In this document: one piece after another, positions 8,939 to 60,306 of the stretch
Layout: each line of letters begins with the position of its first letter
How positions within the stretch are numbered: position 1 is the stretch's first letter
Assembly (NCBI GenBank): GCA_018829965.1
Contig: JAHJTG010000016.1
Location: forward strand, 93,537-157,536
Direction of reading: 5' to 3'
DNA: 64,000 nt
DNA from: Patescibacteria group bacterium
GTDB lineage: Bacteria; Patescibacteriota; Minisyncoccia; Minisyncoccales; Staskawiczbacteraceae
Made by a program: the position numbers and the translations under genes
Notes under the pieces: model-generated
What the model was told of the DNA's origin: nothing
Database searches by the model: none
The model's input: the letters and a program-made list of their open reading frames with translations, nothing else

Positions 8939-8970
8939 GATTTAGGATTTAGAATTTAGAATAAAAAATC

Positions 8971-11925: not shown

Positions 11926-12413
11926 TTTCTTTCTAAAATTACGAATGAATAATCAAACTTATTCTTTTCGTCAGCTTTATTGTCTGTTCTTTTTACTTCC
12001 CTCCATTCCTTTATATCAAATTCTGGGAAATATGTATCGCCTTCGAAACTGTGATGTATAAAGGTTAAATAAAGGCGGTTGGCTAATGGCAGAAGTTGCT
12101 TATACACCAATGCTCCTCCGCAAATCATTACTTCGTTTTCATTTTTTACCATATCTAAAAGTTCTTCTATAGAGTGCGCGACGAAGCAACCTTCTGGCGG
12201 AACATAACTTAAGTCGTTGTTTAAAATAATATTCTTTCTGCTTGGCAGGGGTTTTTCTCCAATTGATTTGAAAGTGTTCAAACCCATAACAATAGGTTTA
12301 TTCAGCGTGGTTTCTTTAAAATATTTAAAGTCGTCTGGCAGATGCCATGGCAAAGAGTTTTTGTTTCCAATCACTCTATTCTCTGCTACTGCTGATATTA
12401 TTGAAAGTATCAT
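11922..12413 (-). CDS. folA: Dihydrofolate reductase
   Basis: MILSIISAVAENRVIGNKNSLPW start. The upstream part of the ORF track covers a repeat element. ATGA overlap with the gatB start. Confidence 0.85.
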   Translation of the reverse strand: MILSIISAVAENRVIGNKNSLPWHLPDDFKYFKETTLNKPIVMGLNTFKSIGEKPLPSRKNIILNNDLSYVPPEGCFVAHSIEELLDMVKNENEVMICGGALVYKQLLPLANRLYLTFIHHSFEGDTYFPEFDIKEWREVKRTDNKADEKNKFDYSFVILERK

Positions 12414-12420
12414 ATATTTT

Positions 12421-12507
12421 ATAATTACAAGTGAAGGAGGAATATATGGAAACGAGTTTCTATATATTCCGACCGAACGACTAATTATATAAATTGCGGA
12501 GCAATTT
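12421..12507. repeat. AGCGAGG...CCGAGCGA-family modular hairpin element (variant GTGAAGG...CCGAACGA)
   Basis: ataattacaagtgaaggaggaatatatggaaacgagtttctatatattccgaccgaacgactaattatat, plus a second small hairpin. Confidence 0.7.
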
Positions 12508-13332
12508 CTAAACAGCCATTGGCGCTTTAATCGACGGATGATATTTATAGTCAACCAGCTTTATGTCTTCCATCTTAAAACTAAATATATCTTTTACTTC
12601 TGGGTTCAGCCATAATTTTGGCAAAGGATAAGGCTCTCTCGCCAACTGCTCTTTTACCTGGTCAAAATGATTTAAATAAATATGCGTGTCGCCTAAAATA
12701 TGCACAAATTCCCACGGCTCCAATCCCACAACCTGAGCCACCATATGTAAAAACAATGAATAAGAAGCAATATTAAACGGCACGCCTAAAAATGTATCGC
12801 AACTTCTTTGATACATTAACAAAGACAATTTGCCTTGAACGGAAAAAAAATGGAAAAGTAAATGGCAAGGCGGAAGAGCCATCATATCTAACTCTGCCGG
12901 ATTCCATGAAGACGCAATAATTCTTCTGTCTCCAGAATTTTTTTTCAATTGAGAAATAACATTGCTTATCTGATCTATCGGCACATCAGTATAAGGCGAC
13001 CTCCAGTTTCTCCATTGAACTCCATAAACTCTGCCCAAATCTCCCTCAAACTTTGCTTTTGGCTTCCAATAATCTGCATTAGCATTGCCATCCCAAATAT
13101 GACAACCTAGTTTTTGTAACTCTTTTACATCACTGCTTCCAGATAAAAACCAAAGTAATTCTGCTTTCATTGATTCAAATGCTAATTTTTTTGTTGTCAC
13201 TGCAGGAAAACCGTCTTTCATATTAAATCTCATCGGAACTCCGAAAATAGCTCGAGAACCAACTCCAGTTCTGTCAGGTCTATCAACACCCTCATCCATT
13301 ATTTTTTTTAAAACATCTAAATATTGCTTCAT
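12508..13332 (-). CDS. thyA: Thymidylate synthase (ThyA type)
   Basis: 274 aa. DRTGVG, PPCH (LPPCHLLFHF), DTHIY motifs. Confidence 0.95.
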   Translation of the reverse strand: MKQYLDVLKKIMDEGVDRPDRTGVGSRAIFGVPMRFNMKDGFPAVTTKKLAFESMKAELLWFLSGSSDVKELQKLGCHIWDGNANADYWKPKAKFEGDLGRVYGVQWRNWRSPYTDVPIDQISNVISQLKKNSGDRRIIASSWNPAELDMMALPPCHLLFHFFSVQGKLSLLMYQRSCDTFLGVPFNIASYSLFLHMVAQVVGLEPWEFVHILGDTHIYLNHFDQVKEQLAREPYPLPKLWLNPEVKDIFSFKMEDIKLVDYKYHPSIKAPMAV

Positions 13333-13401: not shown

Positions 13402-14106
13402 TTATATTAATTTTTTTAAAAAAATTAATATTTTTTGATTTATTATTTCCGGTGACAATAACTCACTTTTATCCAAACATTCCACAACTTTAAAATCCTT
13501 TGGAAATTCTTTCGCTGCCGTTAAATAAGAATTAAGAGCGTTTTTTAAATGACTTCTGTCTTTTTCGTGTATATCTTGTTTTTTACTACTTCCCAAATAA
13601 GCTTTTCTTCTGTTTTGTTTATCTTTATCTGTTATGTTGTGTGCTAGCTTTAAAGAAAACTCTGGTGACGTTTTCAAAATAAACGTACAATCCGGCTTTG
13701 GTATTTTAAAAATATTATATTCTAAATTATACAACCAATTTACATATTTCTTCCATTCTTTTTTGCTTTTTATCTTTCCTCCTTGATGCCCAATATTTGA
13801 AACTAAATACCTGTCCGAAATAACAATCTTGCCTTCGTTTAACCATTTTTTAATTTTAAAACTAGCGTCATATCTATCACAAGCATAAAAAATAGAGGGA
13901 ACATAAGCCCCCACTTCTTCTGAGCTCCCGTATTTACCTGTTAAGTAATCATCTACTAATGCCGAGGATCTTTCTCCATGTTGTGGAAAATCAATTTTTT
14001 CTACTTTATATCCTTTATCTTTAAAATACTCAATCGCCAATTTTGCCTGAGTGGCTTTGCCACACCCATCAATTCCCTCGAAAACAATAAATTTTCCTTT
14101 TTTCAT
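13402..14106 (-). CDS. tmk: Thymidylate kinase
   Basis: FIVFEGIDGCGKATQ P-loop, DRY motif (SDRYLVS). Confidence 0.85.
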   Translation of the reverse strand: MKKGKFIVFEGIDGCGKATQAKLAIEYFKDKGYKVEKIDFPQHGERSSALVDDYLTGKYGSSEEVGAYVPSIFYACDRYDASFKIKKWLNEGKIVISDRYLVSNIGHQGGKIKSKKEWKKYVNWLYNLEYNIFKIPKPDCTFILKTSPEFSLKLAHNITDKDKQNRRKAYLGSSKKQDIHEKDRSHLKNALNSYLTAAKEFPKDFKVVECLDKSELLSPEIINQKILIFLKKLI

Positions 14107-14198
14107 AATTATGAGCGAGGAAGGGATATATGGAAACTCGTTTCCATATATTCCGACCGAGCGATTAACTATATAAACGGCTTCGCCGTTTATATAGT
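14105..14198. repeat. AGCGAGG...CCGAGCGA modular hairpin element (best-preserved copy)
   Basis: ataattatgagcgagg-aagggatatatggaaac-tc-gtttccatatattcc-gaccgagcga-ttaactat, then the perfect hairpin actatataaacggc-ttc-gccgtttatatagt. Confidence 0.75.
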
Positions 14199-14812
14199 CA
14201 TATTTTTTTTAAATATTCATTATAAACTATTTGCATCCAAACACTGTGACTTATTTTGTCACCCGACAAATCTTTTAAGCCTATCATCATTCCATCCATT
14301 TTATCGGCTTCTTTCACATTAATATTCGAGCTATCCCCCACGAAATGATAGACTAATCCTAAATGCACTTGCTCCACTGATCTTGATTCGTCGTTTATTA
14401 TACCGATTAATTTTTTTTGTATTAAATTACCTTGAAAATTAACTTCTTCATTCCACTCTCTCATCATACCAACCTCTAAAATATTCTTACCCCTATCGCC
14501 ATCTTTTTTGTTTATGTGTCCACCAACTCCTAGCTGATAATCATTATTAACTAATCTTTGATCGCCAGCTGCTTTTAAATACTTGTAAGCAAAAAATTGG
14601 TCTTCAAAACTAAAAAGGATATATGGAATTATCTGCTGAAAAGAAGAATCATTTTCCATATCTCCCCTTCTTTTAAATTGGCTTTCCTTTTTTATTAAAT
14701 CGATATAATAATCCAAATTATCAGTTTTCAATCCTTGCCACTTCCCATTTTTGAAAAGAATTTCTGATTTTATGACCAATACCTGCTCGTCCTCTTTTTT
14801 TATTTTTTCCAT
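14198..14812 (-). CDS. Hypothetical protein with a degenerate Nudix-like box
   Basis: GGHINKKDGDRGKNILEVGMMREWNEEV resembles the GX5EX7REUXEEXGU box. Sits inside the dTMP cluster. Confidence 0.45.
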   Translation of the reverse strand: MEKIKKEDEQVLVIKSEILFKNGKWQGLKTDNLDYYIDLIKKESQFKRRGDMENDSSFQQIIPYILFSFEDQFFAYKYLKAAGDQRLVNNDYQLGVGGHINKKDGDRGKNILEVGMMREWNEEVNFQGNLIQKKLIGIINDESRSVEQVHLGLVYHFVGDSSNINVKEADKMDGMMIGLKDLSGDKISHSVWMQIVYNEYLKKI

Positions 14813-16996: not shown

Positions 16997-17017
16997 ACAC
17001 TTTTTGTTTCACAAAAG

Positions 17018-17149
17018 AAACTCTAAATTCTAAGCTCTAAACTCTAAACAATATCAAAACTCTAAATTCAAATAATTAAAACGTTTTTAGATTTTGAATA
17101 TTTAATATTTGGATTTATTTAGGATTTAGGATTTGGGATTTAGGATTTT
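17018..17149. repeat. Arm-inverted heptamer arrays (CTCTAAA-type arm, then TTTAGGA-type arm) forming a ~130-bp imperfect palindrome
   Basis: Left arm 17018-17074, right arm 17084-17149. Fills the secE-nusG spacer. Confidence 0.7.
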
Positions 17150-18139: not shown

Positions 18140-20779
18140 TTATATATCTAAGTTCTTTACCGTCTTTGCATGAGTCTGGATAAATTTCTTTCTTGGCTCT
18201 ACCTCTTCGCCCATTAAAATATCAAAAATTTTATCTGCCTCTCTGGCGGTATCAATTGTAACCCTTAATAATAATCTATTTTGAGGATTCATTGTTGTCT
18301 CCCAAAGCTGTATTGAATCCATTTCTCCCAAACCTTTATATCGTTGGATAGAAATACTTTGATTTTTATTAACTGTTTTCAAAAGCTTCTCTTTTTGTTC
18401 GTCGTTATAGACATGCTTTATTTCTCTGCCAATCTGTATTTTATAAAGCGGTGGCTGAGCGATATAAATATATCCAGCGTCAACCAATGGTCTGAAGTGA
18501 CGATAGAAAAGAGTTAAAAGTAATGTCCTAATATGGGCGCCATCAACATCAGCATCAGTCATAATAATAACTCTATGATATCTTAGTTTTTCTATATTAA
18601 AATCTTCGCCAATCGCTGTCCCTAGAGCAATAACCAAAGCTCTTATCTCTTTTGAATCCAACATTTTGTCCAAACGAGCCCTTTCCACATTTAGAATCTT
18701 GCCTCGTAAAGGTAAAATCGCTTGAAAATGCCGGTCTCTTGCTTGTTTTGCGCTATTATGAACAAAAACCCCCGATGCCAATGCAAAGTTATGAGTATTC
18801 TTAACTTCTAAATCATAAACATCTACCCTTTCTTTCAATTTAACTATTCTTTTAATTTTATGGTTATAGCTTGAAACTGTTTGTTCTAATACTCTTTCTT
18901 TTCTAAAACATTCTTTATGAAAAGGCATTAAAGAATCTTCTGTTTTTAAGTCTTTTGCCATTTTGTAATTTCCGCCCCTCAACATAAACTTGTGATCTGG
19001 CGTACAAATCATCTCTTCGTCATTATCTAAAACAACTTTAATAACTTCTGCGTTTTCTTTTGTTTTTCTTGGATTATCAATTGGCTCGATTCCAACACTA
19101 CCGTCATTTTTAATTGTATAACAATAATTCTTCTTTCCTTGTTTATGTTCTTCAACCAAATTTTCAAAAGATAAGTTTCTTCCATCAGCTAAAGCAACTT
19201 CAGTTTTTCCAAACCAACAACCACCGGCACTCTCTCCTTCGACGATATACAATTCTGATTCTTCTGGTTTTCTTGAAAGACAATCTGCAAGTTTTCCAGG
19301 CAACGCTAATCCTTCTAATACTCCTTTTCTTAAAACTGTCTGACGAGCGCTTTTTGCCGCTTGCCTGGCTTTTGCCGCCAATAAACAGTTTTCAACAATT
19401 CCTTTAGCATCTGATGGGTAACGTTCTAAATAATCGCTTAAACCTTCTGCCACAGCTGTCTCTACGGCGTTTTTGGCTTCTGGGTTTCCTAATTTTGCTT
19501 TTGTCTGGCCCTCAAATTGAGGATTCCTTATTTTTACAGAAATTACTGAAGTTAATCCTTCTCTTACGTCTTCACCTGAAAGATTTTCATCTTTTTCTTT
19601 TAAGTATCCTTCCCTTCTAGCATAATCATTTAATGACCTCGTTAAAGCCGCCCTAAAACCAGTTAAATGAGTGCCTCCTTCTGGAGTATAGATATTATTG
19701 GCAAAACTTTCTTCAATGCATTCCATCTCTTGGGTATATTGAAAAGCTGCTTCAACTGCGATTTCGTTTTTTGTAGTAGCTATGCTGAAAACATTAGGAT
19801 TTCTTGGTGTATTCCCAGTAGTTAAATATTTTACGTAAGAAGCCACTCCCCCTTCAAAATAAAAGGCGTAGCTAAATTTCTCTTTAGAATTTCTTTCATC
19901 TGAAAAAGAAATCCTAACCCCCTTAGTAAGATAAGCCTGTTGGCGTAAATGATTTAGAATCTTCTTAGAATCAAATTTTATCTCTTTAAAAATATCTGGA
20001 TCTGCTTGGAAAGTAACAGTGGTTCCTGTCTTTCTGCAAGCTCCTATTTTTTTAACCGGAGACTTTACATCACCCTTAGCATATTCCTGCATATACAAAC
20101 CGCCATCTCTGCAAACTTCTGCTCTCATTTGAATAGACAATGCGCAAACAACAGAAACGCCGACACCATGCAAGCCTCCAGATACCTGATATGCTTTACT
20201 ACCAAATTTACCACCAGCATGTAAAACCGTCATTACAGTTTCTAATGCTGATTTTTTAGTTTGAGAATGTTTTTCTACTGGAATGCCTCTGCCATCATCA
20301 GAGACTTTAACCAAATTGTCTTGCAAAAGAGAAACCTCTATATTTTTACAATGACCAGCCATCGCTTCATCCAAGCTATTATCAATAACCTCCCAAATTA
20401 AATGATGAAGACCATCCAAACCAGTTGAGCCAATATACATTGCTGGTCTTTTTCTTACCGCCTCAAGACCTTTTAAAACATAAATATCTTTAGCTGTGTA
20501 TTCGTCCTTTCCTGTTTTTTCTTTTAAAGGCTTCTCGTCTCTCACTGTCTCAATAACCTCTTTTTCTACTTTAGTTTGTCTTGTTTTAGTTTTAATAGAT
20601 TCAACCTTAGTCGGTTTAACTTTAGCCACAACAGCTTTCTTGACTATTTTTTCAGCTTTTGGTTTCTTCTTTCCCTCACCTGCAACGCTATGCCAGCCCG
20701 CAGTAGATACAGCGTTTCTGGCGGGCGAAACATTGCGGGCAGGTTCTTTTATCTCTCTTATTTTTATTTTTATAGCCAT
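18140..20779 (-). CDS. gyrB: DNA gyrase subunit B, interrupted by a mini-intein. The long Lys-rich 5' extension is of uncertain translation.
   Basis: VLKGLEAVRKRPAMYIG, GGLHGVG, EGESAGG|intein|SAKQARDR, Toprim and C-terminal motifs. Possible alternative GTG start at 20545. Confidence 0.9.
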   Translation of the reverse strand: MAIKIKIREIKEPARNVSPARNAVSTAGWHSVAGEGKKKPKAEKIVKKAVVAKVKPTKVESIKTKTRQTKVEKEVIETVRDEKPLKEKTGKDEYTAKDIYVLKGLEAVRKRPAMYIGSTGLDGLHHLIWEVIDNSLDEAMAGHCKNIEVSLLQDNLVKVSDDGRGIPVEKHSQTKKSALETVMTVLHAGGKFGSKAYQVSGGLHGVGVSVVCALSIQMRAEVCRDGGLYMQEYAKGDVKSPVKKIGACRKTGTTVTFQADPDIFKEIKFDSKKILNHLRQQAYLTKGVRISFSDERNSKEKFSYAFYFEGGVASYVKYLTTGNTPRNPNVFSIATTKNEIAVEAAFQYTQEMECIEESFANNIYTPEGGTHLTGFRAALTRSLNDYARREGYLKEKDENLSGEDVREGLTSVISVKIRNPQFEGQTKAKLGNPEAKNAVETAVAEGLSDYLERYPSDAKGIVENCLLAAKARQAAKSARQTVLRKGVLEGLALPGKLADCLSRKPEESELYIVEGESAGGCWFGKTEVALADGRNLSFENLVEEHKQGKKNYCYTIKNDGSVGIEPIDNPRKTKENAEVIKVVLDNDEEMICTPDHKFMLRGGNYKMAKDLKTEDSLMPFHKECFRKERVLEQTVSSYNHKIKRIVKLKERVDVYDLEVKNTHNFALASGVFVHNSAKQARDRHFQAILPLRGKILNVERARLDKMLDSKEIRALVIALGTAIGEDFNIEKLRYHRVIIMTDADVDGAHIRTLLLTLFYRHFRPLVDAGYIYIAQPPLYKIQIGREIKHVYNDEQKEKLLKTVNKNQSISIQRYKGLGEMDSIQLWETTMNPQNRLLLRVTIDTAREADKIFDILMGEEVEPRKKFIQTHAKTVKNLDI
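18755..19219 (-). mobile_element. Mini-intein (155 aa, no endonuclease domain) in the GyrB EGDSAGG-SAKQGRD site
   Basis: Starts CWFGKTEV (Cys1), block B TPDH, ends GVFVHN followed by Ser+1. The exteins rejoin to the conserved EGESAGGSAKQARDR. Confidence 0.85.
20676..20742. repeat. GC-rich palindromic element type B (core tgccagcccgcagtagatacagcgtttctggcgggcg)
   Basis: The 37-bp core at 20691-20727 is 35/37 identical to 53807-53843. Outer stem acctgc/gcaggt. Confidence 0.75.
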
Positions 20780-20842: not shown

Positions 20843-22048
20843 TTAACGCAATGTAGCTCCCAAGTCCTGTTTAGTCTTTTCCCTAATTTCTTCTTGAATT
20901 TTATTTATCTCTTCATTTGTCAGCGTTCTTTCTGGCGAACGATAAACAATCCTGAACGTATAGCTCTTCTTGTCTTTTCCAAACTTACTTTCATCTTCGT
21001 ATTCGTCAATTAATTTCACCTCTTCAATAATTCCAACATTTGAATTTTCTGTCCCGACGGCTCTGCCGTCGAGGATCCTCGATGACGAAGTCATCGGGAC
21101 AAAATCTCTTACAATTTCGTAATAATTATTCAAATTTATATTTTTGTCTATCACAAAAGAAATATCTCTTGAGGTTTCCGGATACTTGCTTACTTCTTTA
21201 TACTTGCTATTAATATCTTTAAATTGGCTGGTAATTCTTAGGTCATCCGACCAAAGAACTCTAATATCTGGTATTCCCATTTTTACCATTGCTAACCTAT
21301 CTATCCCGAAGCCGAAAGCCCAGCCATTGTAAACTTCCGGATCTAAACCAAAATTCTTCAAAACCTGCTTATGAACAAGTCCCGACCCAACAACTTCCAT
21401 CCATTGCTCACCCAACTTAATATCCATCTCTACTGACGGATCCGTAAAAGGGAAAGAGTCAACGATAAACTTATGCTCAACCTTTTCTCCAAAGATACTT
21501 TTTCCGATATCGGCTAAAATATCTTTCAAATCTTCTAGGGTGATAACTTTTTGGTCTTTTTTGCAAATATATAGTCCGTCTATTTGATGAAAGGCAGGAA
21601 AATGATTTTTATCAATTTCATCTTTGCGGAAAACTATTCCAGTTGATAAAGCCCCAACACTCCCCTTTTCTTTTAATCTTTTAAAAATCTCAGGATCTCT
21701 TAAATAAAAAGGCCACATAACTGTTGTCTGCGTTCTTAAAACATATTCGTCTGTAAGGTAATAGGTATCTGTTTCTCTGCGACTCGGGTGGCCTTCTGGA
21801 GTATTTAAAACATCGAAGTTCTCTTCTAATGTAACCACTCTAGGAAAATCGACTAAATCAAAATCAGCAAATCTTGACAATTTTATTATCTGATTAGCTA
21901 AAATCTTTACAGGAGAATTCTGCTTCTTTGTAAGGTCAGGAAGGTTTAATAATTTTTTGATTCTCTCTGCTTTAATATCTTTCCTCTTCCCCAACTCCTC
22001 AATAATAGCGCCTTCTTTAGAGTTTTCTATTACGATATTTTTACGCAT
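20843..22048 (-). CDS. pheS: Phenylalanine--tRNA ligase, apparent single-chain type: PheS catalytic core fused to a C-terminal FDX-ACB (anticodon-binding) domain
   Basis: Motif 2 FRKDEIDKNHFPAFHQIDG. Motif 3 GWAFGFGIDRLAMVKMGIPDIRVLWSDDLR. C-terminus YPETSRDISFVI...KSYTFRIVYRSPERTLTNEEIN. Confidence 0.85.
   Translation of the reverse strand: MRKNIVIENSKEGAIIEELGKRKDIKAERIKKLLNLPDLTKKQNSPVKILANQIIKLSRFADFDLVDFPRVVTLEENFDVLNTPEGHPSRRETDTYYLTDEYVLRTQTTVMWPFYLRDPEIFKRLKEKGSVGALSTGIVFRKDEIDKNHFPAFHQIDGLYICKKDQKVITLEDLKDILADIGKSIFGEKVEHKFIVDSFPFTDPSVEMDIKLGEQWMEVVGSGLVHKQVLKNFGLDPEVYNGWAFGFGIDRLAMVKMGIPDIRVLWSDDLRITSQFKDINSKYKEVSKYPETSRDISFVIDKNINLNNYYEIVRDFVPMTSSSRILDGRAVGTENSNVGIIEEVKLIDEYEDESKFGKDKKSYTFRIVYRSPERTLTNEEINKIQEEIREKTKQDLGATLR
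21051..21100. repeat. GC-rich palindromic element type A, in frame inside pheS
   Basis: gtcccga-cggctctgccg-tcgaggatcctcga-tgacgaagtca-tcgggac. Translated VPMTSSSRILDGRAVGT. Confidence 0.8.
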
Positions 22049-35390: not shown

Positions 35391-37319
35391 TTACTGCCTG
35401 CTCTTAAATATCTCCAAGAATGCCCGATGGGAGATTTCAACCCTCCCCTTCTCCTTTAATAGCTTTTTTCCTTTCTTCTGTTTCTCTAAAAGTTTTCTTT
35501 TTCTTGTCACATCTCCTCCGTATAGATAACCGGTGACATCCTTTCTTCTGGCCCTGATTGTTTCACGGGCTAAAACCTTGCCTTGAACTACTGCCTGCAA
35601 AGCAACTGAGAATTGTTCCGGAGGCAAAACATCTTTTAATTTTTCTACCAAAAACTTTCCTTCCCTATATGCTTCGTCTTCGGAAACAATCTTTGAAAAC
35701 GCTTCTTCTGAGTGTCCTGCAATCCAAATTTCCATTTTTACCAAATTACCTGGCCTAAAACCTAAAACCTTATAGTTCATTGAAGCATAACCTTGGCTTA
35801 CGCTTTTTACTTTATCGTAAAGATTGCTAATAATCCCGCGCAAAGGCACTTCATAAATAATAATTGCCCTATCTTGGCCAAAATATTGGGTATCAACATA
35901 GATTCCTCCGGTATTTTTTAAAATATCAGAAAGCTTGCTTATGTAAACACTCGGGGTAATAAGCTCTAAAGACACCCAAGGCTCTTCAGTTTTTTGGATA
36001 AAGGTAGCATCCGGCCAATCCGAAGCTGAATAGATAAATTCTTCTTTGCCCTTTTGATTAAAGATTTTATAAACAACCGATGGCGTTGAAATCACTAGAT
36101 TAAGACCGAATTCTCTTCTTAGTCTTTCAGAAGCAATCTCAACGTGTAAAGTACCTAAAAATCCGCATCTGTATCCTCTGCCTAAAGCTTCTTTTGTTTC
36201 GGGCTCAAATATAAAAGATGGGTCGCTTAACTTTAGTTTTGCCAATGCGTCTTTTAATAAATCAAAGTCGCCAGCATCCTGCGGATAAAAACTGGCAAAA
36301 ACCATTGGTCTTGGTTCTAGATAACCATGCAGGGGTTGGATTTCAGAGGCTTTTAATTTAAACTGCTGGCTTGAAACAATTGTATCGCCGACCCTTACCT
36401 TGCCTGGCTCTTTAATTCCTGTAGCAATATATCCGATTTCACCTGCTGAAATCTTTCCTTGAGCAACAGGTCCTGGCATAAAATATCCTATTTCTTTTAT
36501 CTCTGCTTCAGTATTCGTAACCATCAACCTTACTCTCTCGCCTGCGTTAATTTCACCATCAACAACTCTGATAAAAGCAATGACTCCTTTATAGGCATCA
36601 TAATCTGAATCAAAAATTAAAGCCCTAAAAGGTTTTTGAGTATTTATTTCTGGAACAGGAACTTCTTCAATAATTTTACTTAAAAGAGTATCTACATTAG
36701 CTCCTGTTTTCCCAGAGATTCTAAGAATTTTCTCCGGATCAATGCTTAAAAGATTAGCGATTTCTAAAGCGCTTTCTTCAATTCTGGCATCTGGCGCATC
36801 TATTTTATTCACCACAGGAATTATTACTAAATTTTGTTGTTTAGCCAACTCTAAATTAGCTAATGTCTGGGCTTGAATGCCTTGAGTGGCATCAACCAAT
36901 AAAACTGCTCCTTCAACTGCAGCCAAAGCTCTTGAAACTTCGTAGGAGAAATCAACGTGGCCTGGAGTATCTACCAAGTTCAAAACATATTTTAAACTTG
37001 GAAACTCTAAATTCGAAGCACTAAATTCTAAACTATTGGTTTCGGATTTTGGGTTTTGGGTTTTGGGTTTATTTAGAATTTCGGATTTAGGATTTAGGAT
37101 TTGCGAATGATATATCATTCGTACTGGTTTAAGTTTAATTGTAATCCCCTTTTCTCTTTCTAAGTCCATTCTATCCAAAAACTGCGGTTTCATTTTACCC
37201 GGCTTTACCGCTCCAGTTATTTCTAAAAATCTATCGGCTAAGGTAGATTTCCCATGGTCAATATGGCTAATAATTACAAAATTACGTATATTCTCCTGCA
37301 TATTTATATTTTTTACCAA
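35391..37319 (-). CDS. lepA: Elongation factor 4 (LepA)
   Basis: NFVIISHIDHGKSTL, DTPGHVDF, NKID, LepA C-terminal domain. Contains a ~37-codon heptamer-array insertion. Confidence 0.93.
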   Translation of the reverse strand: MVKNINMQENIRNFVIISHIDHGKSTLADRFLEITGAVKPGKMKPQFLDRMDLEREKGITIKLKPVRMIYHSQILNPKSEILNKPKTQNPKSETNSLEFSASNLEFPSLKYVLNLVDTPGHVDFSYEVSRALAAVEGAVLLVDATQGIQAQTLANLELAKQQNLVIIPVVNKIDAPDARIEESALEIANLLSIDPEKILRISGKTGANVDTLLSKIIEEVPVPEINTQKPFRALIFDSDYDAYKGVIAFIRVVDGEINAGERVRLMVTNTEAEIKEIGYFMPGPVAQGKISAGEIGYIATGIKEPGKVRVGDTIVSSQQFKLKASEIQPLHGYLEPRPMVFASFYPQDAGDFDLLKDALAKLKLSDPSFIFEPETKEALGRGYRCGFLGTLHVEIASERLRREFGLNLVISTPSVVYKIFNQKGKEEFIYSASDWPDATFIQKTEEPWVSLELITPSVYISKLSDILKNTGGIYVDTQYFGQDRAIIIYEVPLRGIISNLYDKVKSVSQGYASMNYKVLGFRPGNLVKMEIWIAGHSEEAFSKIVSEDEAYREGKFLVEKLKDVLPPEQFSVALQAVVQGKVLARETIRARRKDVTGYLYGGDVTRKRKLLEKQKKGKKLLKEKGRVEISHRAFLEIFKSRQ

Positions 37320-37926: not shown

Positions 37927-39597
37927 TTACTTTTTATTCTTCCCGTTTAAAAATCCGACTTGGCTTAAAACAAAATTTTTGAGATGTTTCACTTCGGGGG
38001 ACTTAAAAATATAGGTAGCCAATAGATAGAATGAAAATCCTAAACCTCCGGAAATTAAAGCTTGGAACAAAATTGTCAAAAAAGTTTTCTCGCCTATATA
38101 ACCACCAACAACCTGACGAACGAAATAAGTGAAAAATATCGTTAAAAAGGTTGCAACTAAAACTTTTTTTAAGGAGGACAAAATTTCTTTTGTATGGAAA
38201 TTAATAACTTTCTTTTTAAAAATAACAATTAATAAAAATAATTGTAAAACAGCATTTAACGAAATTGCTAATGGCAAACCGACAACGGCTAAATTTTGCA
38301 TACCTTCAATTTTTAAAAATTGACTTAATAAAATAGAAAAGAAGTTTTGGAAACCTAAAGCCCAAACAAAAAAATAACCGAACGCGGCCGTACTGGCTAT
38401 ACTGATAATACTGATTAAGGCTGGAGTTTTTGTATCGTGCATTGCGTAAAAAGCTTTGGCTAAAAGATAAATTAATCCCTGGGCAAAAAGACTTAACATA
38501 AAAATTCCAAAACAAGCAGCGGTCAATTTAGTGGCTGACCAATCAAACTTTCCAGCGCCGAAAGCAATTCTTACGAGATGAGCTCTTAAAATAAATGCGA
38601 TGGCGCTTATGGGAATTATTAGAAATAGAATTTGGCGAAAAACCGAAGTAAATTTAGCAAGCATTTCTTTTTTATCTCCTTTTGAAAAAGCCAAAGACAA
38701 AGCCGGAAAAACAGCAATGGCAAACGGAATAGCAACCAAGCCAATTATCGGCAAGGACAAATCGTTAGCTAAACTAAAAACACCAATGCTCCCAGGAATT
38801 AATGTTGAACCGATGATAGTAATGACAACCAAGTTAATTTGAGCGGCAGCTAAACCAATTGCTCTAGGCACAGTGAGTTTTAAAGTTAACAAAAATTCCT
38901 TGTCAAGAAAATTAAAGACATTCTGGATTTTAAAGCCAATTTTAAATAATGTGGGCAACTGAATTATAAGATGGAGAATGGCTCCCAAAACAATACCCCA
39001 TGCAAGGCCTGAAATCCCCATCCTGGGAACAAAAAATATAATACCGATTATACTGCCAAGATTATAGACTATTGGAGCTAAAGCAGTTATTAAAAACCTT
39101 TGGAAAACCCTTAAAATAGCAGAGATTATATTACTAATACCCATTAAAATCGGGCTTAAAAACATTATTCTGGTCAGCGTAGTTGTAATTTCCCTTTTCT
39201 CTCCTGAAAAACCCGGCGCAATTAAAGAAATCAATTGAGGGGTAAAAATAAATAAAATCCCACAGATTATAATCAAACCAACCAAAGCTAGGTTTAAAAG
39301 ATTAGATATATAGTTAAAAGCTTCTTTCCTGCTTCTTATTAAGTTTTTAGTAAAAATTGGAATAACTGCGACACCGATAGCGCCAGTCATTAAAACCATC
39401 GCGACAAAGTCCGGAATACGAAATGCAGTATAATAAACATCAAGCTCATTCCCCAATCCATATCTTCCGGTTAATAAACGGTCTCTTAATATCCCTAAAA
39501 CAAAACTTAGAAAAGAGAAAACGGACAAAATTAAAGCGGCCAAAGAAATATTTTTGGCCTCATGATTATATATTTTTTTAAGAAGATTTTTTAACAT
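37927..39597 (-). CDS. murJ: Lipid II flippase MurJ (MviN family)
   Basis: 556 aa, about 14 TM helices. N-terminal LGILRDRLLTGRYGLGNELDVYYTAFRIPD is typical of MurJ. Confidence 0.85.
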   Translation of the reverse strand: MLKNLLKKIYNHEAKNISLAALILSVFSFLSFVLGILRDRLLTGRYGLGNELDVYYTAFRIPDFVAMVLMTGAIGVAVIPIFTKNLIRSRKEAFNYISNLLNLALVGLIIICGILFIFTPQLISLIAPGFSGEKREITTTLTRIMFLSPILMGISNIISAILRVFQRFLITALAPIVYNLGSIIGIIFFVPRMGISGLAWGIVLGAILHLIIQLPTLFKIGFKIQNVFNFLDKEFLLTLKLTVPRAIGLAAAQINLVVITIIGSTLIPGSIGVFSLANDLSLPIIGLVAIPFAIAVFPALSLAFSKGDKKEMLAKFTSVFRQILFLIIPISAIAFILRAHLVRIAFGAGKFDWSATKLTAACFGIFMLSLFAQGLIYLLAKAFYAMHDTKTPALISIISIASTAAFGYFFVWALGFQNFFSILLSQFLKIEGMQNLAVVGLPLAISLNAVLQLFLLIVIFKKKVINFHTKEILSSLKKVLVATFLTIFFTYFVRQVVGGYIGEKTFLTILFQALISGGLGFSFYLLATYIFKSPEVKHLKNFVLSQVGFLNGKNKK

Positions 39598-39607
39598 TAA
39601 AGTTAGA

Positions 39608-39862
39608 AAGCGAGGTGTTAGCGTTAAAAGTAAATTTCACAGGCTCAATTCCCAATCTGTTGAGCGAGGCGACGAGTTTAAAGATAAATTTCGCAGGCTC
39701 AATTCCCAAACTGTTAAGCGAGGCGACGAGTTTAAAAGTAAATTTCGCAGGCAATTTAGCATGGTTTCGCCGATTGGCGACCGCAACCGACCGCAACACC
39801 GGGTGTTGCGGAGTAAGGGGTTTGGATTATCGCCACTTTTATGGCTACTGCCGAGCGACATT
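39608..39862. repeat. Expanded AGCGAGG...CCGAGCGA element: ~2.6 tandem 54-55-bp units plus a conserved ~110-bp GC-rich module
   Basis: Units start at 39608, 39663 and 39717. The tail gcatggtttcgccgattggcg...ccgcaacaccgggtgttgcgg...attatcgccacttttat...ccgagcgaca is shared with 44618-44826. Confidence 0.7.
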
Positions 39863-41901: not shown

Positions 41902-41904
41902 AAT

Positions 41905-42280
41905 ATCTCAACAAGACTATAAGCCGAATTCTGTTCTATGTGATCATCTGTCTGGACCAAAAATTACTCTTTGGTTCTTGCGAACTACTTTTAACAGAAA
42001 TTCAAGATGAAATTAACCTAAATTTCTGCTTTGTTCTTGCGCCCAGTAAGGATTTAGCCGTTTCATTTCCGTATTACTACGGAATTCGCCCCCCTTCGCA
42101 TAAAGCTACGGAAGGGCGTTTTAATCCTTTCGAATTAAAACGTTTCTGCTCGCACCTCTAACCTCGCGGTCGACGGCTGTTAGCCGCTACTTTTTTAGAG
42201 TCGCCTAAGCGACAATGGGTGTTCGGACTTTCCTCCCTTTATCAATTAAGATAAAGAGCGATCACTCGTCTTGTTGAGAC
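41905..42280 (-). ncRNA. rnpB: RNase P RNA (bacterial type A)
   Basis: P1 TCTCAACAAGAC/GTCTTGTTGAGA. P3 hairpin CTTTATC-TTAATT-GATAAAG. CR-I GGGAGGAAAGTCCGAACACCC. CR-V ACAGAATTCGGCTTATAG. Confidence 0.85.
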
Positions 42281-42286
42281 AATTAT

Positions 42287-42315
42287 ATAATACCAAACCT
42301 TTAACCCCTTGTCAA
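42287..42315 (-). promoter_or_regulatory. Sigma-70-type promoter for rnpB
   Basis: TTGACA (42315-42310), 17-nt spacer, TATTAT (42292-42287). The P1 helix starts 6-7 nt downstream. Confidence 0.7.
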
Positions 42316-42380
42316 ATTAGAATTGGGGTGTCCGACATAGAATTGGGGTGTCCGACACCCCAATAACTCAATGAAATTAA

Positions 42381-44508: not shown

Positions 44509-44544
44509 AATAATTTTAATTTTCAATTCCCAATTTTCAATTTT

Positions 44545-44587
44545 TCCCGACTTCGTCGAGGATCCTCGATGGCTTCGCCATCGGGAC
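44545..44587. repeat. GC-rich palindromic element type A, intergenic copy
   Basis: tcccga-cttcgtcg-aggatcctcga-tggcttcgcca-tcgggac. Confidence 0.8.
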
Positions 44588-44617
44588 AATGAATTTTTAA
44601 TTATCTAATCTTCAAAA

Positions 44618-44826
44618 TGTTAAGTGAGGCAATAATGTATACGGAGCACTTCGCGGAGCCAAGCTAAACTGTTAAGCGAGGTGGTAGTTATAAAAGTGCC
44701 TCTCGCGGGCGATTTTGCATGGCTTCGCCGATTGGCGGCCGCAACACCGGGTGTTGCGGAGTTGGTGTTGCGAAGTGAGGGGTTTGAATTATCGCCACTT
44801 TTATAACTACTACCGAGCGACACTCT
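44618..44826. repeat. Expanded AGCGAGG...CCGAGCGA element with a 15-bp perfect stem enclosing the conserved GC-rich module
   Basis: gtagttataaaagtg (about 44684) pairs with cacttttataactac (about 44796). The cargo contains the ccgcaacaccgggtgttgcgg hairpin. Confidence 0.7.
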
Positions 44827-45887
44827 CATTGTATTAAAGGTTGTAATCCAACAAGCTGTTCCCCTGAAAGAAAACTTAACATTGCGCCTCCTCCGGTTGA
44901 AACATAATCAAACTTTGATGCCAATTTTGTTTTAGTTAAAAATTCAACCGTCTCGCCTCCACCAACTAAAGTGAAACAAAACCATTTTTTAGTAATTGCT
45001 TTGGCAATCGCAAGCGTCCCCTTCGCAAACTCTTCTTCTTCTGTCTGGCCGAGAGGACCATTCCAAAAAATAGTCTTTGCTTTTTTAATTTTTTTCCTAA
45101 AAAGTTTAACCGTCTCCGGGCCAATATCTAATTTTCTTCCGTCCGACTCAATGGCATCAATCGGTACCACTAACTTCTCCTTAAAACTAAACTCTATTCC
45201 CATTTTTTCTATTTCCTGTTTTATCAACTCTCCGATTATAACAACATCTGCAAACTTTAAGATATTTTCGATTAATTTCGTCTTTGTTTCTACTTTCTTA
45301 CCGCCAATAATAGCTAACATTGGCCTCTTTGGTTTTTGCATCACTTTTTCCAATGTCCTTATTTCTTTTTCAAGTAAAAGCCCGACTCCTTTCTCTTTTA
45401 TATATTGCGGCACGCCAACAACCGAGGCGTGAGCTCTATGACAGACGCCGAAAGCATCATTAATATATATCTCTCCCGTTCTTGAAAGAAACGATGCAAA
45501 CTCTTGATTATTTTCAGTTTCTTCTTTATGAAACCTTAGATTTTCCAAAAGAAAAATATCACCGGGATTCAATCCATAAGTGTATTTTTCTATTTCATAC
45601 CCTATACAATCTGGGGCTTTGGTTACAGGACGGCCCAAATGAGCTACAAGATTTTCTTGAACCTTATCCATTGTTAAAGTCGGGACAATCTTGCCGTCCG
45701 GATTCCCCAAATGACTCATTAATATTATTTTTGCCTTTTTTTTAATAAGATATTTAATAGTTGGAAGAATTTTCACAATTCTTGAATCATCTAAAATGTT
45801 CCCTTGTTCATCCAAGGGAACATTAAAATCACATCTGACCAAAACTCTTTTATTTCCGACATTAAGGTCGTAAATTTTCTTAATCAT
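44826..45887 (-). CDS. pgk: Phosphoglycerate kinase
   Basis: RCDFNVPLD, HLGNPDG, GGGETV/STGGGA motifs. Short at 353 aa. Confidence 0.93.
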   Translation of the reverse strand: MIKKIYDLNVGNKRVLVRCDFNVPLDEQGNILDDSRIVKILPTIKYLIKKKAKIILMSHLGNPDGKIVPTLTMDKVQENLVAHLGRPVTKAPDCIGYEIEKYTYGLNPGDIFLLENLRFHKEETENNQEFASFLSRTGEIYINDAFGVCHRAHASVVGVPQYIKEKGVGLLLEKEIRTLEKVMQKPKRPMLAIIGGKKVETKTKLIENILKFADVVIIGELIKQEIEKMGIEFSFKEKLVVPIDAIESDGRKLDIGPETVKLFRKKIKKAKTIFWNGPLGQTEEEEFAKGTLAIAKAITKKWFCFTLVGGGETVEFLTKTKLASKFDYVSTGGGAMLSFLSGEQLVGLQPLIQ

Positions 45888-53658: not shown

Positions 53659-54231
53659 TTATAGTCTTTCCACAATTTTTAATTCTACACTATCCTTCTC
53701 CGTATCATAAACAGCGAAAGTTGGCTTAAAGATTTGACCTGCAGCTTCACCGGGGTTAATTAATAAGCATCCTTTTTCTTCCCCGCTCGCAACGCTTCGC
53801 TTCGCTTGCCAGCCCGCAGTAGATACAACGTTTCTGACGGGCGTAGCGATGCGGACGAGCCATGGCTTATGAGTATGGCCGTAAAAAACTATATCGTATT
53901 TTCCTGATTCGGCTAATTGTTTAGCCGGCTCTAATTTATGGATAACAGCTATTTTTTTACCGTCTAATTCTATTTCCAAGGGTTCTTGAACAACTTTGAT
54001 TGTCGACGGATTTTGATATTCCTCTATCCTTATATCCCAATCTTTATCCATATTGCCAAAAATCCCAAGAAATTCTCCTTTGAAATTTGCCAAAGACTCC
54101 TTCAATGATTCCGGGCTGCCGATATCGCCGCAATGCAAAATAGTCTTTATATTTTCTTTGTTTACCCATTCAACAATTTTTTTAAAAGTTGCAGTATTAC
54201 CGTGAGTATCAGAAATAATTACGATTTTCAT
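53659..54231 (-). CDS. Metallophosphoesterase (YfcE/MJ0936 family) with an in-frame repeat insertion
   Basis: MKIVIISDTHGN, HCGDIG, GNMD, GHTHKP...INPG. Confidence 0.8.
   Translation of the reverse strand: MKIVIISDTHGNTATFKKIVEWVNKENIKTILHCGDIGSPESLKESLANFKGEFLGIFGNMDKDWDIRIEEYQNPSTIKVVQEPLEIELDGKKIAVIHKLEPAKQLAESGKYDIVFYGHTHKPWLVRIATPVRNVVSTAGWQAKRSVASGEEKGCLLINPGEAAGQIFKPTFAVYDTEKDSVELKIVERL
53781..53860. repeat. GC-rich palindromic element type B, in frame inside the phosphoesterase gene
   Basis: Core 53807-53843. Translated RIATPVRNVVSTAGWQAKRSVASGEE between the conserved GHTHKP and INPG motifs. Confidence 0.8.
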
Positions 54232-59666: not shown

Positions 59667-59681
59667 AATATTAGATGTTGG

Positions 59682-59767
59682 GTGTCCCGACTTCGTCGAG
59701 GATCCCCGATGGTTCCGACTTTGTCGAGAATCCTCGACTTTGTCGGGACTTCGCCATCGGGATTAGT
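59682..59767. mobile_element. Nested or double GC-rich palindromic element type A, flanked by a 13-bp perfect direct repeat
   Basis: tattagatgttgg occurs at 59669-59681 and 59768-59780. Interior: gtcccgacttcgtcgaggatcc...ttccgactttgtcgagaatcctcgactttgtcgggac...ttcgccatcggga. Confidence 0.75.
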
Positions 59768-60152: not shown

Positions 60153-60306
60153 CTATTTTAAAATTAAAAATTAAAACATTAAGAAATTATTTAAAAATAG
60201 AGATTAAGTAACCTATATAATTGGTTCGCTCGCTCGGAATAAATAAGCAAAGCTTCTTTATTCTTCACTCGCTACCAATTATTAAAAATTACAAAATTAA
60301 AAATTG

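Follow-up and report, generated by a model that had tools for sequence, protein, structure and literature searches.

Two copies of one composite repeat interrupt otherwise closed gene junctions in the stretch of DNA analysed here, a 64,000-nucleotide part of a Patescibacteria contig that we call the window. Copy A (39598–39862) lies upstream of murJ, and copy B (44612–44822) lies upstream of a recJ-like (DHH) gene. The two copies are paralogous and represent real lineage-specific insertions, and they are derivatives, not full members, of the GA-clamp module, a widespread structured hairpin module of Patescibacteria that is apparently undescribed. On balance we consider it probable that the composite derived from this module, was inserted at two junctions and is generic at most in any role it has there.

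A preliminary description of this DNA had reported tandem units upstream of murJ, a GC-rich module at 39.8 kb that recurs at 44.7 kb upstream of the recJ-like gene, and the position of both copies upstream of the next minus-strand gene; all three observations were reproduced. The parts of the two copies are listed below.

39598–39662, plus strand: copy A unit 1, with AGCGAGG at 39609–39615, 11 nt from the murJ start codon (CAT at 39595–39597); its arm at 39619–39631 pairs with the right arm
39663–39716, plus strand: copy A unit 2, with AGCGAGG at 39663–39669
39717–39762, plus strand: copy A unit 3, with AGCGAGG at 39717–39723; truncated, running into the cargo and homologous to copy B unit 2
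39763–39834, plus strand: copy A GC-rich cargo, with the perfect hairpin CCGCAACACC-G-GGTGTTGCGG (39791–39811) and a 10-nt slipped duplication at 39778–39797
39835–39862, plus strand: copy A right end, with the right arm (39835–39847) and right clamp CCGAGCGA (39851–39858); overlaps the last four codons and the TAG stop (39845–39847, minus strand) of the CofE-like gene
44509–44611, no strand assigned: remainder of the 315-nt block at copy B, with AT-rich heptamer repeats (44512–44544), a GC-rich three-way palindromic element (~44542–44592) and an AT-rich spacer
44612–44674, plus strand: copy B unit 1, diverged, with AGTGAGG at 44623–44629
44675–44698, plus strand: copy B left clamp (AGCGAGG at 44675–44681) and 5' arm of the enclosing helix (44680–44698)
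44699–44795, plus strand: copy B GC-rich cargo of 97 nt, with a hairpin at 44739–44759 and a 14-nt slipped duplication at 44750–44776
44796–44822, plus strand: copy B 3' arm (44796–44814) and right clamp CCGAGCGA (44813–44820), ending 3 nt from the PGK stop codon (TGA at 44826–44828, minus strand)

Copy A, as assembled, has three 54-nt units. TRF reports a repeat with a period of 54 and 2.4 copies at 39623–39752 (91% matches, score 214), and a repeat search combined with alignment gives 78% identity between 39609–39662 and 39663–39716, with a third, partial unit from 39717. The units differ among themselves by 8–22%, and unit 1 of copy B is similar to unit 2 of copy A. Both copies share a module of ~155 nt with ~85% identity. 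The repeat search matches 39708–39787 to 44666–44745 at 80% and 39802–39860 to 44764–44822 at 90%, with BLAST E-values between the copies down to 1.5e-14. When the two are aligned pairwise with MAFFT, column identity is 85% (177 columns); a 10-nt indel falls in A and a 14-nt indel in B. This alignment agrees with the consensus that had been written for the module. The homology runs from AAACTGTTAAGCGAGG to CCGAGCGACA; the clamp half-sites and the block GGCGATAAT are intact in both copies, and the slipped duplications flank the cargo hairpin. With up to two mismatches allowed, CTGTTAAGCGAGG has 4 matches against 0.74 expected, a count that none of 100 shuffles reaches. CCGAGCGA has 6 matches against 0.54 expected.

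The perfect 15-bp helix said to enclose the cargo of copy B is present (44684–44698/44796–44810) and belongs to a pair of 19-nt arms with 95% complementarity, separated by 97 nt. The arms of copy A are short (13 nt), 85% complementary and far apart (203 nt between them), which supports decay of this copy. Its right arm finds its best pairing partner in unit 1, so that units 2 and 3 and the cargo all lie inside the helix. As to the proposed nesting of one element within the stem of another, a GC-rich insert does lie inside the stem of copy B and, more loosely, inside that of copy A.

Both insertion sites are flanked by genes that are syntenic housekeeping genes in relatives, and there the flanking pairs are 2 nt apart or overlap at both loci. 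The neighbouring genes are of the MurJ, F420-ligase-like, Kelch, DHH, PGK, RNase H and TrwB-like kinds. In one relative with 85–89% nucleotide identity (L005), the PGK stop codon and the DHH start codon read caaTAGaaATG and the entire 315-nt block is missing; in L006 and L008/L009, the CofE-like and MurJ genes overlap without an insert. Since both blocks are missing in relatives, they are recent insertions. The DHH gene starts at ATG 44508 (385 aa, as in homologues) and not at TTG 44589, which places copy B 104–315 nt upstream of it. On the minus strand, the 3' end of the CofE-like gene reads ...ATT AGA AAT GTC GCT CGG CAG TAG, and the proteins of relatives end in PIIIVRKIL* and PIIIIRRSDNA*. 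As these ends differ, the last four codons and the stop derive from the copy A element, which bears out the earlier attribution of the residues VARQ and the stop codon to it. Neither copy is conserved at its locus, which argues against a dedicated murJ or recJ leader or small RNA and, as far as such junction comparisons reach, against conserved regulators of either gene.

The short end motifs of a 'modular element' that had been recognized at the two loci and elsewhere in the window, AGYGAGG…CCGARCGA, are indeed there and form the core of a two-hairpin module. That this small element has a covarying structure and is widespread had been missed. On the GA strand, the module consists of an AT-rich outer helix (ATAATTA/TAATTAT), the clamp, a variable covarying hairpin with a loop of 3–5 nt, and a second small hairpin. 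In the clamp, GAGYGAGG pairs with CCGARCGA, and the G-C pairs are interrupted by tandem G·A steps (three in the module), which form on the GA strand only. This strand folds better than its complement (5.7 kcal/mol more stable; better in 54 of 56 copies), and the tally of pairing mismatches across the family is 58 G·U against 32 A·C.

A strict pattern for the module matches 87 metagenome loci, with ~5 expected by chance, and the covariance model R1 finds 103 copies in 578 kb of those loci. With filters off, the model detects six canonical copies in the window at 55–78 bits, and it detects none in 72 kb of close relatives. The alignment has 92% of its cells paired and contains 131 cells with double-sided changes, compared with 48±5.5 in shuffles (0 of 500 reach this number); the Y:R pair of the clamp is CG in 39 and UA in 28 cases. 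The canonical copies in the window are as follows.

3859–3968, plus strand: canonical module in sense orientation between two plus-strand genes, with heptamer repeat arrays on its flanks
12410–12521, plus strand: canonical module between thyA and folA, with the thyA stop codon TAG at the H2 edge; 72.1 bits
13334–13439, plus strand: short form of the canonical module between tmk and thyA; 55 bits, outside the seed alignment
14094–14205, plus strand: canonical module filling the spacer between a Nudix-like gene and tmk (both minus strand), with the tmk ATG overlapping its end; 78.4 bits
50977–51115, minus strand: canonical module in sense orientation, located 25 nt past the secF stop codon; its P2 is enlarged to 70 nt
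60183–60293, minus strand: canonical module with the covarying outer helix AATTGGT/ACCAATT, in sense orientation upstream of a hibernation-factor-like gene

The module usually fills the spacer between two genes, and its end overlaps the ATG of the opposite-strand gene in approximately 36 of 60 loci, including genes with genuine N-termini (rplB, dnaA, recA, pth, rplI, rplQ, rplM and rpsF). Read in the sense of these genes, it presents a −35-like box (TAGAAA/TTTAGA), a spacer of 16–17 nt, a perfect TATAAT, a hairpin leader and then the ATG, the canonical distance to the start codon being 7 nt. Shine-Dalgarno sites precede 3 of 50 genes in this lineage. Related genomes carry the module at different junctions (L064 compared with the window), and some keep it at orthologous junctions with compensatory changes (L034/L092 and L039/L062). 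Since canonical modules are kept in this way, the family is probably functional, and copies A and B may retain part of that function.

At the gathering score, Rfam 15 matches only RNase P RNA and two tRNAs in the window, and at E-values up to 10 it gives nothing credible over A, B or the canonical copies. IMG/VR contains 0 matches to the canonical module, and a viral origin was discarded on this ground. Our literature search on repeats, MITEs and motifs of Patescibacteria/CPR, and on the literal sequence, found nothing relevant. Two further interpretations were rejected: the clamp is not a K-turn, as there is no 3-nt bulge and the G·A steps lie within a continuous helix, and mini-ORFs behind the GAGG of the canonical hairpin do not fit GC-rich variants without ATG in a lineage without Shine-Dalgarno use.

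Measured against the canonical module, copies A and B retain the clamp. Copy A has three AGCGAGG half-sites (39609, 39663 and 39717) and CCGAGCGA at 39851, in the same orientation as the canonical module; copy B has AGTGAGG at 44623, AGCGAGG at 44675 and CCGAGCGA at 44813. The GA strand is opposite to the flanking genes in both, and a hairpin directly inside the clamp is present in B (19-nt arms) and, in degraded form, in A (13-nt arms). The outer helix is lost at both loci, where the flanks CTGTTA... and ...CACTCTC or CATTTCT cannot pair. A second hairpin of the AAATTGC-loop-GCAATTT type 3' of the clamp is also absent; the coding sequence of the upstream gene follows directly. Model R1 detects neither copy, even with filters off and E-values up to 10. 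The 5' end is 11 nt from the downstream start codon in A and 115 nt in B, where two other repeats intervene. The copies are most likely decaying duplicated derivatives carried in operon transcripts, and between the cistrons they could still have a role, at most of a generic kind.

The preliminary description had further presented the GC-rich cargo (~110 nt) as conserved and suggested searching for it in the genome and in metagenomes. This claim fails: public genomes and metagenomes yielded no further cargo copies. The two copies are a lower bound, as 64 kb of the source genome was searched and the public collections scanned do not include it. The left block of the cargo has 0 matches in metagenome and viral contigs, and the 17-nt right block has just two chance matches, in viral contigs. 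Of the cargo, the 21-nt hairpin alone recurs: 596 Gb of genomes contain four matches, of which two are isolated palindromes in a single Omnitrophota MAG (one falls within an ABC-ATPase gene) and the remaining two look like chance. Copy A has no match in phage and plasmid collections, and the variant ends (GTTAAGYGAGG and CCGAGCGACA) and the cargo occur in this genome only, among all sequence searched. The GC-rich three-way palindromic element beside copy B belongs to another family, with further copies at 21047 and 59680. Other repeat families in the window lie in frame inside gyrB, pheS, lepA and a phosphoesterase gene.

Could the copies work as intercistronic expression modules for murJ and the DHH gene, providing a promoter, a processing site or a stabilizing 5' or 3' hairpin and so letting both genes be expressed independently of the upstream cistron? 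The promoter-like layout of the canonical module in gene sense points that way, as do the 11-nt distance of unit A1 from the murJ ATG, close to the canonical spacing, and a weak TCGGCA-17-GATAAT match kept in both copies; with Shine-Dalgarno sites so rarely used, an AU-rich, pyrimidine-rich leader ending at the ATG is normal in this lineage. However, the parts bearing the TATAAT box and the second hairpin are missing from A and B, in relatives these genes are expressed from overlapping, insert-free junctions, and promoter-like matches near the copies are not commoner than in shuffles (22 compared with 16.2±3.9). We therefore regard this role as unlikely. Promoter and terminator scans together gave counts close to the shuffle expectation. 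Intrinsic terminators were likewise rejected: neither copy has a GC-rich hairpin followed by a U-run on the gene (minus) strand, and the scan picks out the cargo hairpin for the plus strand of B alone, with the poor tail AGTTGGTGTT. A discrete structured antisense small RNA from the plus (GA) strand, with the cargo as its functional part, is a still weaker candidate. The greater stability of the GA strand across the family, its excess of G·U over A·C and its exclusive G·A steps are consistent with it, and so are the significant plus-strand folds (z=−2.8 for A and −2.7 for B) and the terminator-like second hairpin and T-run on the plus strand of the canonical copy at 14168–14198. Against it, the plus strand of A and B has no evident promoter, folding of the minus strand of B is just as significant (z=−3.0), the cargo lacks conservation elsewhere, the differences between the copies do not preserve the enclosing-helix pairing in A, and Rfam has no match for such an RNA.

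That the copies encode small proteins is very improbable. Two minus-strand ORFs (74 aa at 39637–39861 and 69 aa at 44620–44829) share the start M(RV)SLGSS.KSGDN.NP, their ATG is at the same position of the element and the 69-aa ORF is called as a gene in the ENA assembly, but the N-terminus common to both is no more than the element's conserved right end, and the 10-nt and 14-nt indels make the frames diverge after ~20 codons. Among 5.8 billion proteins, the 69-aa translation has no homologue besides the ORF itself, and no called protein shares it; the broken frame and missing homologues led us to reject this reading. We give equally little credence to an assembly artefact behind the tandem units or the entire blocks. 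Short reads make it difficult to resolve how often a 54-nt unit is repeated, and in two read sets the de Bruijn unitigs stop precisely at AGCGAGG (39669 and 44677), which repeats would be expected to cause. Nevertheless, the ENA contig is identical to the window across both elements, and Logan unitigs of ERR2191545 and SRR6514730 have 100% identity over unit A1 as far as 39669 and over cargo B from 44677 upwards, so that three independent assemblies agree base for base on cargo B, on unit A1 and, in the ENA contig, on both whole elements. An artefactual expansion would also not give units that diverge by 8–22%.

Returning to insertion of a module-derived composite, the following history would account for copies A and B. 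The composite probably arose in a Staskawiczbacteria-like (Patescibacteria) lineage from the widespread intergenic GA-clamp hairpin module, whose outer helix was lost together with its second hairpin, and a GC-rich palindromic insert of ~100 nt would have entered at the inner hairpin's tip. Tandem duplication of the left half, which comprises the clamp half-site, the 5' arm and the first bases of the insert, would have followed, with one round preceding the split of A and B and a further one affecting A; replication slippage or unequal recombination is the most likely mechanism. The composite was presumably then carried to another gene junction, 5 kb distant. Both sites are junctions at which the stop and start codons of neighbouring operon genes abut or overlap, so that the insert supplies a new stop codon (A) or directly follows the existing one (B), with the downstream ATG kept. 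The inserts are presumably transcribed in minus-strand operon mRNAs, in which the RNA would form a weaker version of the hairpin with C/U mismatches, and they would act at most as a generic intercistronic structure with no gene-specific regulation. The composite has no terminal inverted repeats, and no transposase was found in a Pfam scan of eight window proteins. Two candidate target-site duplications, TATGA for the tmk copy and AATG, which stands on either side of A, were discarded: in 77 canonical copies, left-edge 4–6-mers are not commoner at the right edge than in the permuted null.

Taken alone, A and B reflect what repeats ordinarily do (insertion, slippage and nesting) in a genome into which small palindromic repeats have spread heavily, and they show that junctions with overlapping stop and start codons can take inserts of 250–315 nt when the stop codon is restored. 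Their wider interest is that they lead to a covarying module at the start codons of many essential genes (dnaA, recA and ribosomal proteins), in organisms without Shine-Dalgarno sites. We tentatively suggest, as a possibility somewhat short of even, that the GA-clamp module is an undescribed class of structured nucleic-acid element, a self-contained intergenic cassette for overlapping genes in Shine-Dalgarno-less genomes. Such a cassette would contain a stop codon, a small hairpin, a TATAAT box, a mismatch-clamped hairpin and a start codon, and three tandem G·A steps, formed on the strand that opposes the genes, would hold it together. It might be a mobile promoter/leader of a new kind, or a recognition structure (RNA or single-stranded DNA) for a protein, and A and B would show the module to be capable of internal duplication and of carrying GC-rich palindromes of foreign origin. 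In most cases the strand that folds better is the one opposing the genes, which could point to an antisense RNA or a single-stranded-DNA function. Transcription and translation starts of Patescibacteria are poorly known, and the module offers a concrete, testable handle on them.

Among known repeats, the BOX elements of Streptococcus pneumoniae, boxA-boxB(n)-boxC, are intergenic, have a long predicted hairpin and are co-transcribed with neighbouring genes; we know of no transposase of their own. The composite resembles them in being a short modular repeat between genes, with end modules that are conserved and an internal one whose tandem number varies. However, the two have no sequence relationship, the ends of A and B form a G·A-mismatch clamp, their tandem unit is the left half of the element and not a separate middle module, and their parent is a strongly covarying two-hairpin module abutting start codons. 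REP/BIME, ERIC and Correia-type repeats or MITEs are imperfect palindromes whose roles may include mRNA stability, termination and promoter supply. They share with our family the dispersed copies in spacers of co-directional genes and the presence or absence among close relatives. Like MITEs, the family has dispersed copies (two composite and six canonical in 64 kb) and empty sites (L005, L006 and L008/L009); terminal inverted repeats and target-site duplications were not detected, and the composite ends are not inverted repeats. A GTAG-type REP head, a RAYT and a transposase were likewise not detected, and the central hairpin varies and covaries, which is more typical of a selected structure than of a transposase-binding end. 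Rickettsia palindromic elements tolerate or create coding sequence, as copy A does in giving a gene its last four codons and stop, whereas A and B are essentially intergenic, have no sequence relationship to them and come from another host phylum.

In an attC site, which lies between promoterless cassettes, an imperfect palindrome has an inverse core, RYYYAAC, at one end and a core, GTTRRRY, at the other. The sequence GTTAAGC agrees with GTTRRRY, but its further occurrences are in direct orientation and the right end offers no inverse counterpart; the flanks are syntenic housekeeping genes, and an integron origin was rejected. TIGR arrays are also tandem short units in Patescibacteria, with 36-nt units composed of two alternating repeats of 8–12 nt and variable spacers of 9 nt, in 5–15 copies beside a Nop-domain Tas gene, and tandem G·A pairs of the box C/D-like kind are used by the hairpin-array variants (Faure et al. 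2025; PMC12045711). The units of A and B are instead 54 nt long, 78–92% identical throughout and without spacers, and Pfam finds no Nop domain in the eight genes at 37.9–47.6 kb; on unit length, missing spacers and missing Tas neighbour, we rejected a TIGR array.

The clamp itself has its closest likeness in a tandem G·A mismatch duplex of the d(ATGAGCGAATA) type, which Li, Zon and Wilson reportedly found in 1991 to be unusually stable in DNA. Whereas that duplex is an oligonucleotide model system and no genomic element, the clamp GAGCGA/GAGCGA has the same GA-GC-GA arrangement, with two tandem G·A steps around a G-C/C-G core, and by analogy the clamp might be able to fold both as RNA and as single-stranded DNA.

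We compared the two expanded GC-rich blocks of the window, copy A (39598–39862), flanked by MurJ and an F420-ligase-like (CofE-like) gene, and copy B (44612–44822), flanked by PGK and a DHH phosphoesterase. The tandem units announced upstream of murJ are confirmed by TRF (39623–39752, period 54, 2.4 copies, 91% matches) and by a repeat search and alignment, which place units at 39609–39662 and 39663–39716 and a third, partial one from 39717. The module also recurs at 44.7 kb upstream of the recJ-like gene, as described: segments 39708–39787 and 44666–44745 are 80% identical, 39802–39860 and 44764–44822 are 90% identical, and pairwise alignment gives a column identity of 85%, the indels being one of 10 nt and one of 14 nt. 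Homology runs from AAACTGTTAAGCGAGG to CCGAGCGACA, and each copy reads as follows.

Copies A (39598–39862) and B (44612–44822), plus strand, in order
Part 1: left clamp half-site AGCGAGG
Part 2: 5' arm
Part 3: GC-rich insert (cargo) with the perfect hairpin CCGCAACACC-G-GGTGTTGCGG
Part 4: 3' arm
Part 5: right clamp half-site CCGAGCGA

The perfect 15-bp helix reported around the copy B cargo is real and belongs to a pair of 19-nt arms with 95% complementarity, between which lie 97 nt. Slipped duplications flank the cargo hairpin (10 nt in A, 14 nt in B). A leftward segment comprising spacer, half-site, 5' arm and first insert bases is repeated once in B, in diverged form, and twice in A according to the alignment; since unit 1 of B resembles unit 2 of A, one duplication is most likely older than the A/B split. 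The right arm of copy A finds its best partner in unit 1's arm (13 nt, 85%, separation 203 nt), in agreement with the MFE fold; a degraded helix thus encloses units 2 and 3 together with the cargo. In the window the short end motifs greatly exceed chance, with four matches to CTGTTAAGCGAGG (0.74 expected) and six to CCGAGCGA (0.54 expected).

Copy A reaches into a gene. The minus strand reads ...AGA AAT GTC GCT CGG CAG TAG, so the element encodes the VARQ-stop of the CofE-like gene, as the preliminary description had proposed. This C-terminus is PIIIIRN-VARQ-stop in the window and PIIIVRKIL-stop or PIIIIRRSDNA-stop in relatives, so the insert has taken the place of the gene's native end. The 385-aa DHH protein starts at ATG 44508, as judged from homologues (named Patescibacteria or Candidatus Staskawiczbacteria), which places copy B 104–315 nt upstream. 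In L005, a relative at 85–89% nucleotide identity, the junction of PGK stop and DHH start is caaTAGaaATG, and the entire 315-nt block 44509–44823 is missing. Gene order is unchanged in relatives L006, L008 and L009 (~69% DHH protein identity); PGK and DHH are spaced by 36 nt in L006 and separated by a 731-aa ORF in L008 and L009, and each of the three has overlapping CofE-like and MurJ genes (ATGA in L006, 8 nt in L008). Both copies are therefore insertions, and neither acts as a leader conserved with murJ or with the DHH gene. Two unrelated repeats, one a heptamer array and the other a GC-rich three-way palindrome, also fall within the block that L005 lacks; the PGK/DHH junction has gathered several inserts.

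Other repeats occur throughout the window (G+C ~35%). The AT-rich heptamer arrays, (TTTAGGA)n and variants, lie at 11238–11302, within the gatB reading frame (...SEILNSKSETNSKSKVQNPK...), and at 3801–3863/3951–3995, 8922–8962 and 17017–17149, often as long inverted pairs flanking other elements. A heptamer-repeat block at 36990–37110 (lepA, minus strand) forms an inverted repeat (AAACTCT.../...TTTAGGA) in frame in the LepA GTPase domain, where it adds 38 aa after KLKPVRMIY and before YVLNLVDTPGH. The insert is absent from L006, and the LepA of the window has 636 aa compared with 597–599 aa in relatives. A second GC-rich family (21047–21105, 44542–44592, 59680–59765) forms a three-way junction, GTCCCGA ... 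TCGAGGATCCTCGA ... TCGGGAC, with one copy in frame within pheS (...VPMTSSSRILDGRAVGTENS...) and two intergenic. One 48-nt GC-rich palindromic element (20691–20738 and 53807–53854, 88% identical) lies in frame in two unrelated genes, at the GyrB N-terminus (...PARNAVSTAGWHSVAG...) and in a metallophosphoesterase (...PVRNVVSTAGWQAKRS...), resembling the in-frame behaviour of Rickettsia palindromic elements. GyrB (18140–20779) also appears to contain an intein, a candidate insert of ~150 aa (CWFGKTEVALADGR...VFVHNS) at the usual GyrB site. The RNase P RNA gene (41904–42277, minus strand, 136 bits) has a near-consensus promoter, TTGACA-17-TGnTATTAT, at 42315–42287, overlapped by a perfect 20-nt tandem duplication (TAGAATTGGGGTGTCCGACA twice) at 42318–42357. 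The minus strand carries all genes from ~10 kb onward; at ~10000, GC skew and gene orientation both flip, from positive skew with plus-strand genes on the left to negative skew with minus-strand genes on the right, a pattern that would fit a replication terminus.

The idea of a conserved GC-rich cargo did not hold up. Its left block has no match in JGI metagenome contigs or IMG/VR, and copy A has none among phage or plasmid records, all collections without the source genome. The cargo hairpin alone gives four matches in 596 Gb of species-representative genomes, which likewise lack the source genome, two of the matches being bare 22–24-nt palindromes in one Omnitrophota MAG. These (TCCGCAACACCCGGTGTTGCGGAG; L011 4745–4765 and L013 7529–7549 of JABDGZ01) belong to an unrelated phylum, and one, within the 3' end of an ABC-ATPase gene, encodes SATPGVAE; they could reflect chance, convergence or a common mobile palindrome.

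The clamp half-sites lead to a larger family. The small elements of the window share AGYGAGG-hairpin-CCGARCGA inside AT-rich palindromic flanks, and the strict pattern TAATTATRAGYGAGG-N20-50-CCGARCGA finds 87 metagenome loci versus ~5 expected, groundwater and sediment being the main sources; one linked protein carries the annotation Candidatus Staskawiczbacteria. The consensus of this GA-clamp module is (tttCA)TAATTATGAGYGAGG[A/G]AG-variable hairpin-CGACCGARCGATTAATTATATAAAT-second hairpin (AAATTGC-n4-GCAATTT)-CTATA. In the clamp, GCGAGG/CCGAGC pairs as G-C, Y-R, G·A, A·G, G-C, G-C. Covariation is seen at the Y:R pair (CG 39, UA 28, UG 6, CA 7), the second step, adjoining it, is AA/GA in 37 copies and GA/GA in 26, and a third GA/GA step is situated toward the AT-rich outer helix. 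The d(ATGAGCGAATA) mismatch duplex, which is very stable, has the same GA-GC-GA arrangement, and this common feature may provide a lead. For the 20 pairs tested, 92% of cells are paired versus 27–52% in slid controls, and both sides change in 131 cells versus 48±5.5 in shuffles (0/500). The outer helix also covaries in copies not selected by the pattern (A-T to G-C, T·T to C-G). Our covariance model, R1, detects six canonical copies in the window at 55–78 bits, three of them outside the seed alignment (reverse strand, at most 20 bits). In metagenome loci totalling 578 kb it detects 103 copies, whereas 72 kb of sequence from close relatives yields none. The module has no Rfam match, and our literature search found no paper describing it. 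The parent module is thus a widespread structure with good statistical support and, so far as our search went, undescribed.

In 52 of 63 judgeable loci, the left-hand neighbour of the GA strand, which carries AGYGAGG, is a gene encoded on the opposite strand. In about 36 loci the ATG of this gene overlaps the module end (CA|TAATTAT, or ...CTCATAATT-ATG in gene sense); these genes are diverse, with genuine N-termini (rplB, dnaA, recA, pth, rplI, rplQ, rplM, rpsF, RNase H, epimerases, membrane proteins). The upstream gene often stops at or inside the second hairpin (e.g., thyA TAG, 12508–12510). The gene-sense order is stop, small hairpin, TATAAT, hairpin, ATG. A -35-like TAGAAA/TTTAGA lies 16–17 nt upstream of TATAAT (one copy scored 10/12). 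In L002, L006 and L008, A/T-rich sequence precedes the start codons and a Shine-Dalgarno-like motif is present at only 3 of the 50 genes called, suggesting that this Staskawiczbacteria group initiates without Shine-Dalgarno sites; in a lineage almost without such sequences, a leader lacking one is thus normal. About 15% of copies (three of the six in the window) are reversed, directly after a stop codon. Among related genomes, some share the junction at which the module sits and show compensatory changes in it (L034/L092, L039/L062), and others have it at different junctions (L064 versus the window). No target-site duplication was detectable at canonical copies, and the viral contigs searched contained no copy. 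Whole-unit tandem duplications occur in L095 (1645–1823), L072 (3311–3482) and L085 (3416–3594), each with two direct modules, both hairpins included, ~74 nt apart; those of L095 are sense-oriented and separate a pilM-like from a pilN-like gene.

On average, the GA-strand hairpin exceeds its complement in stability by 5.7 kcal/mol, and 54 of 56 copies fold better on that strand. There are 58 G·U pairs against 32 A·C pairs (37 to 14 in a simpler count), and tandem G·A arises from the GA strand only, the other giving tandem U·C. Yet the better-folding strand usually runs antisense to the genes beside it. Possible explanations are an antisense RNA, a form made of single-stranded DNA, or selection acting on the weaker sense-strand hairpin together with sequence-specific recognition.

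Copies A and B retain the clamp half-sites and the orientation relative to genes, and copy A also its position adjoining a start codon. Both are without the outer helix, the TATAAT region and the second hairpin; R1 detects neither in the window, and their variant ends (GTTAAGYGAGG, CCGAGCGACA) occur at no other locus in ~640 kb of related sequence. We also weighed whether they could be working intercistronic promoters or processing modules, which we regard as unlikely, or a plus-strand small RNA, which is more doubtful still. That they encode small proteins is hardly credible: the 69-aa ORF over copy B has no homologue that we could find, and the reading frames of the two copies diverge. An assembly artefact is just as improbable, since exact matches covering part or the whole of both elements were found in two Logan unitigs, built from other read sets, and in an ENA contig; the blocks are thus not an assembly invention, and the number of units quoted is the assembled one.

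We consider a lineage-specific composite the probable explanation. It would derive from the GA-clamp family within this lineage, have been enlarged by a GC-rich palindromic insert and a slippage-type duplication of its left half, and then have been copied onto a second junction, with copy A already in decay. Known classes did not accommodate the composite. It does not qualify as a MITE, as neither TIR nor TSD was found, nor as a TIGR array, given its unit structure and neighbours; it qualifies neither as an attC site nor as an intrinsic terminator, and no Rfam family matches. Taken alone, the expanded copies are ordinary, reflecting recent repeat insertion, nesting and slippage in a repeat-invaded Patescibacteria genome; their value is in exposing the widespread parent module. 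In its working the composite most resembles BOX elements, with end modules and a variable tandem internal module, and intergenic palindromes of the REP/BIME, ERIC or Correia type, and Rickettsia palindromic elements intrude into coding sequence in a like manner; to none of these does it have a sequence relationship.
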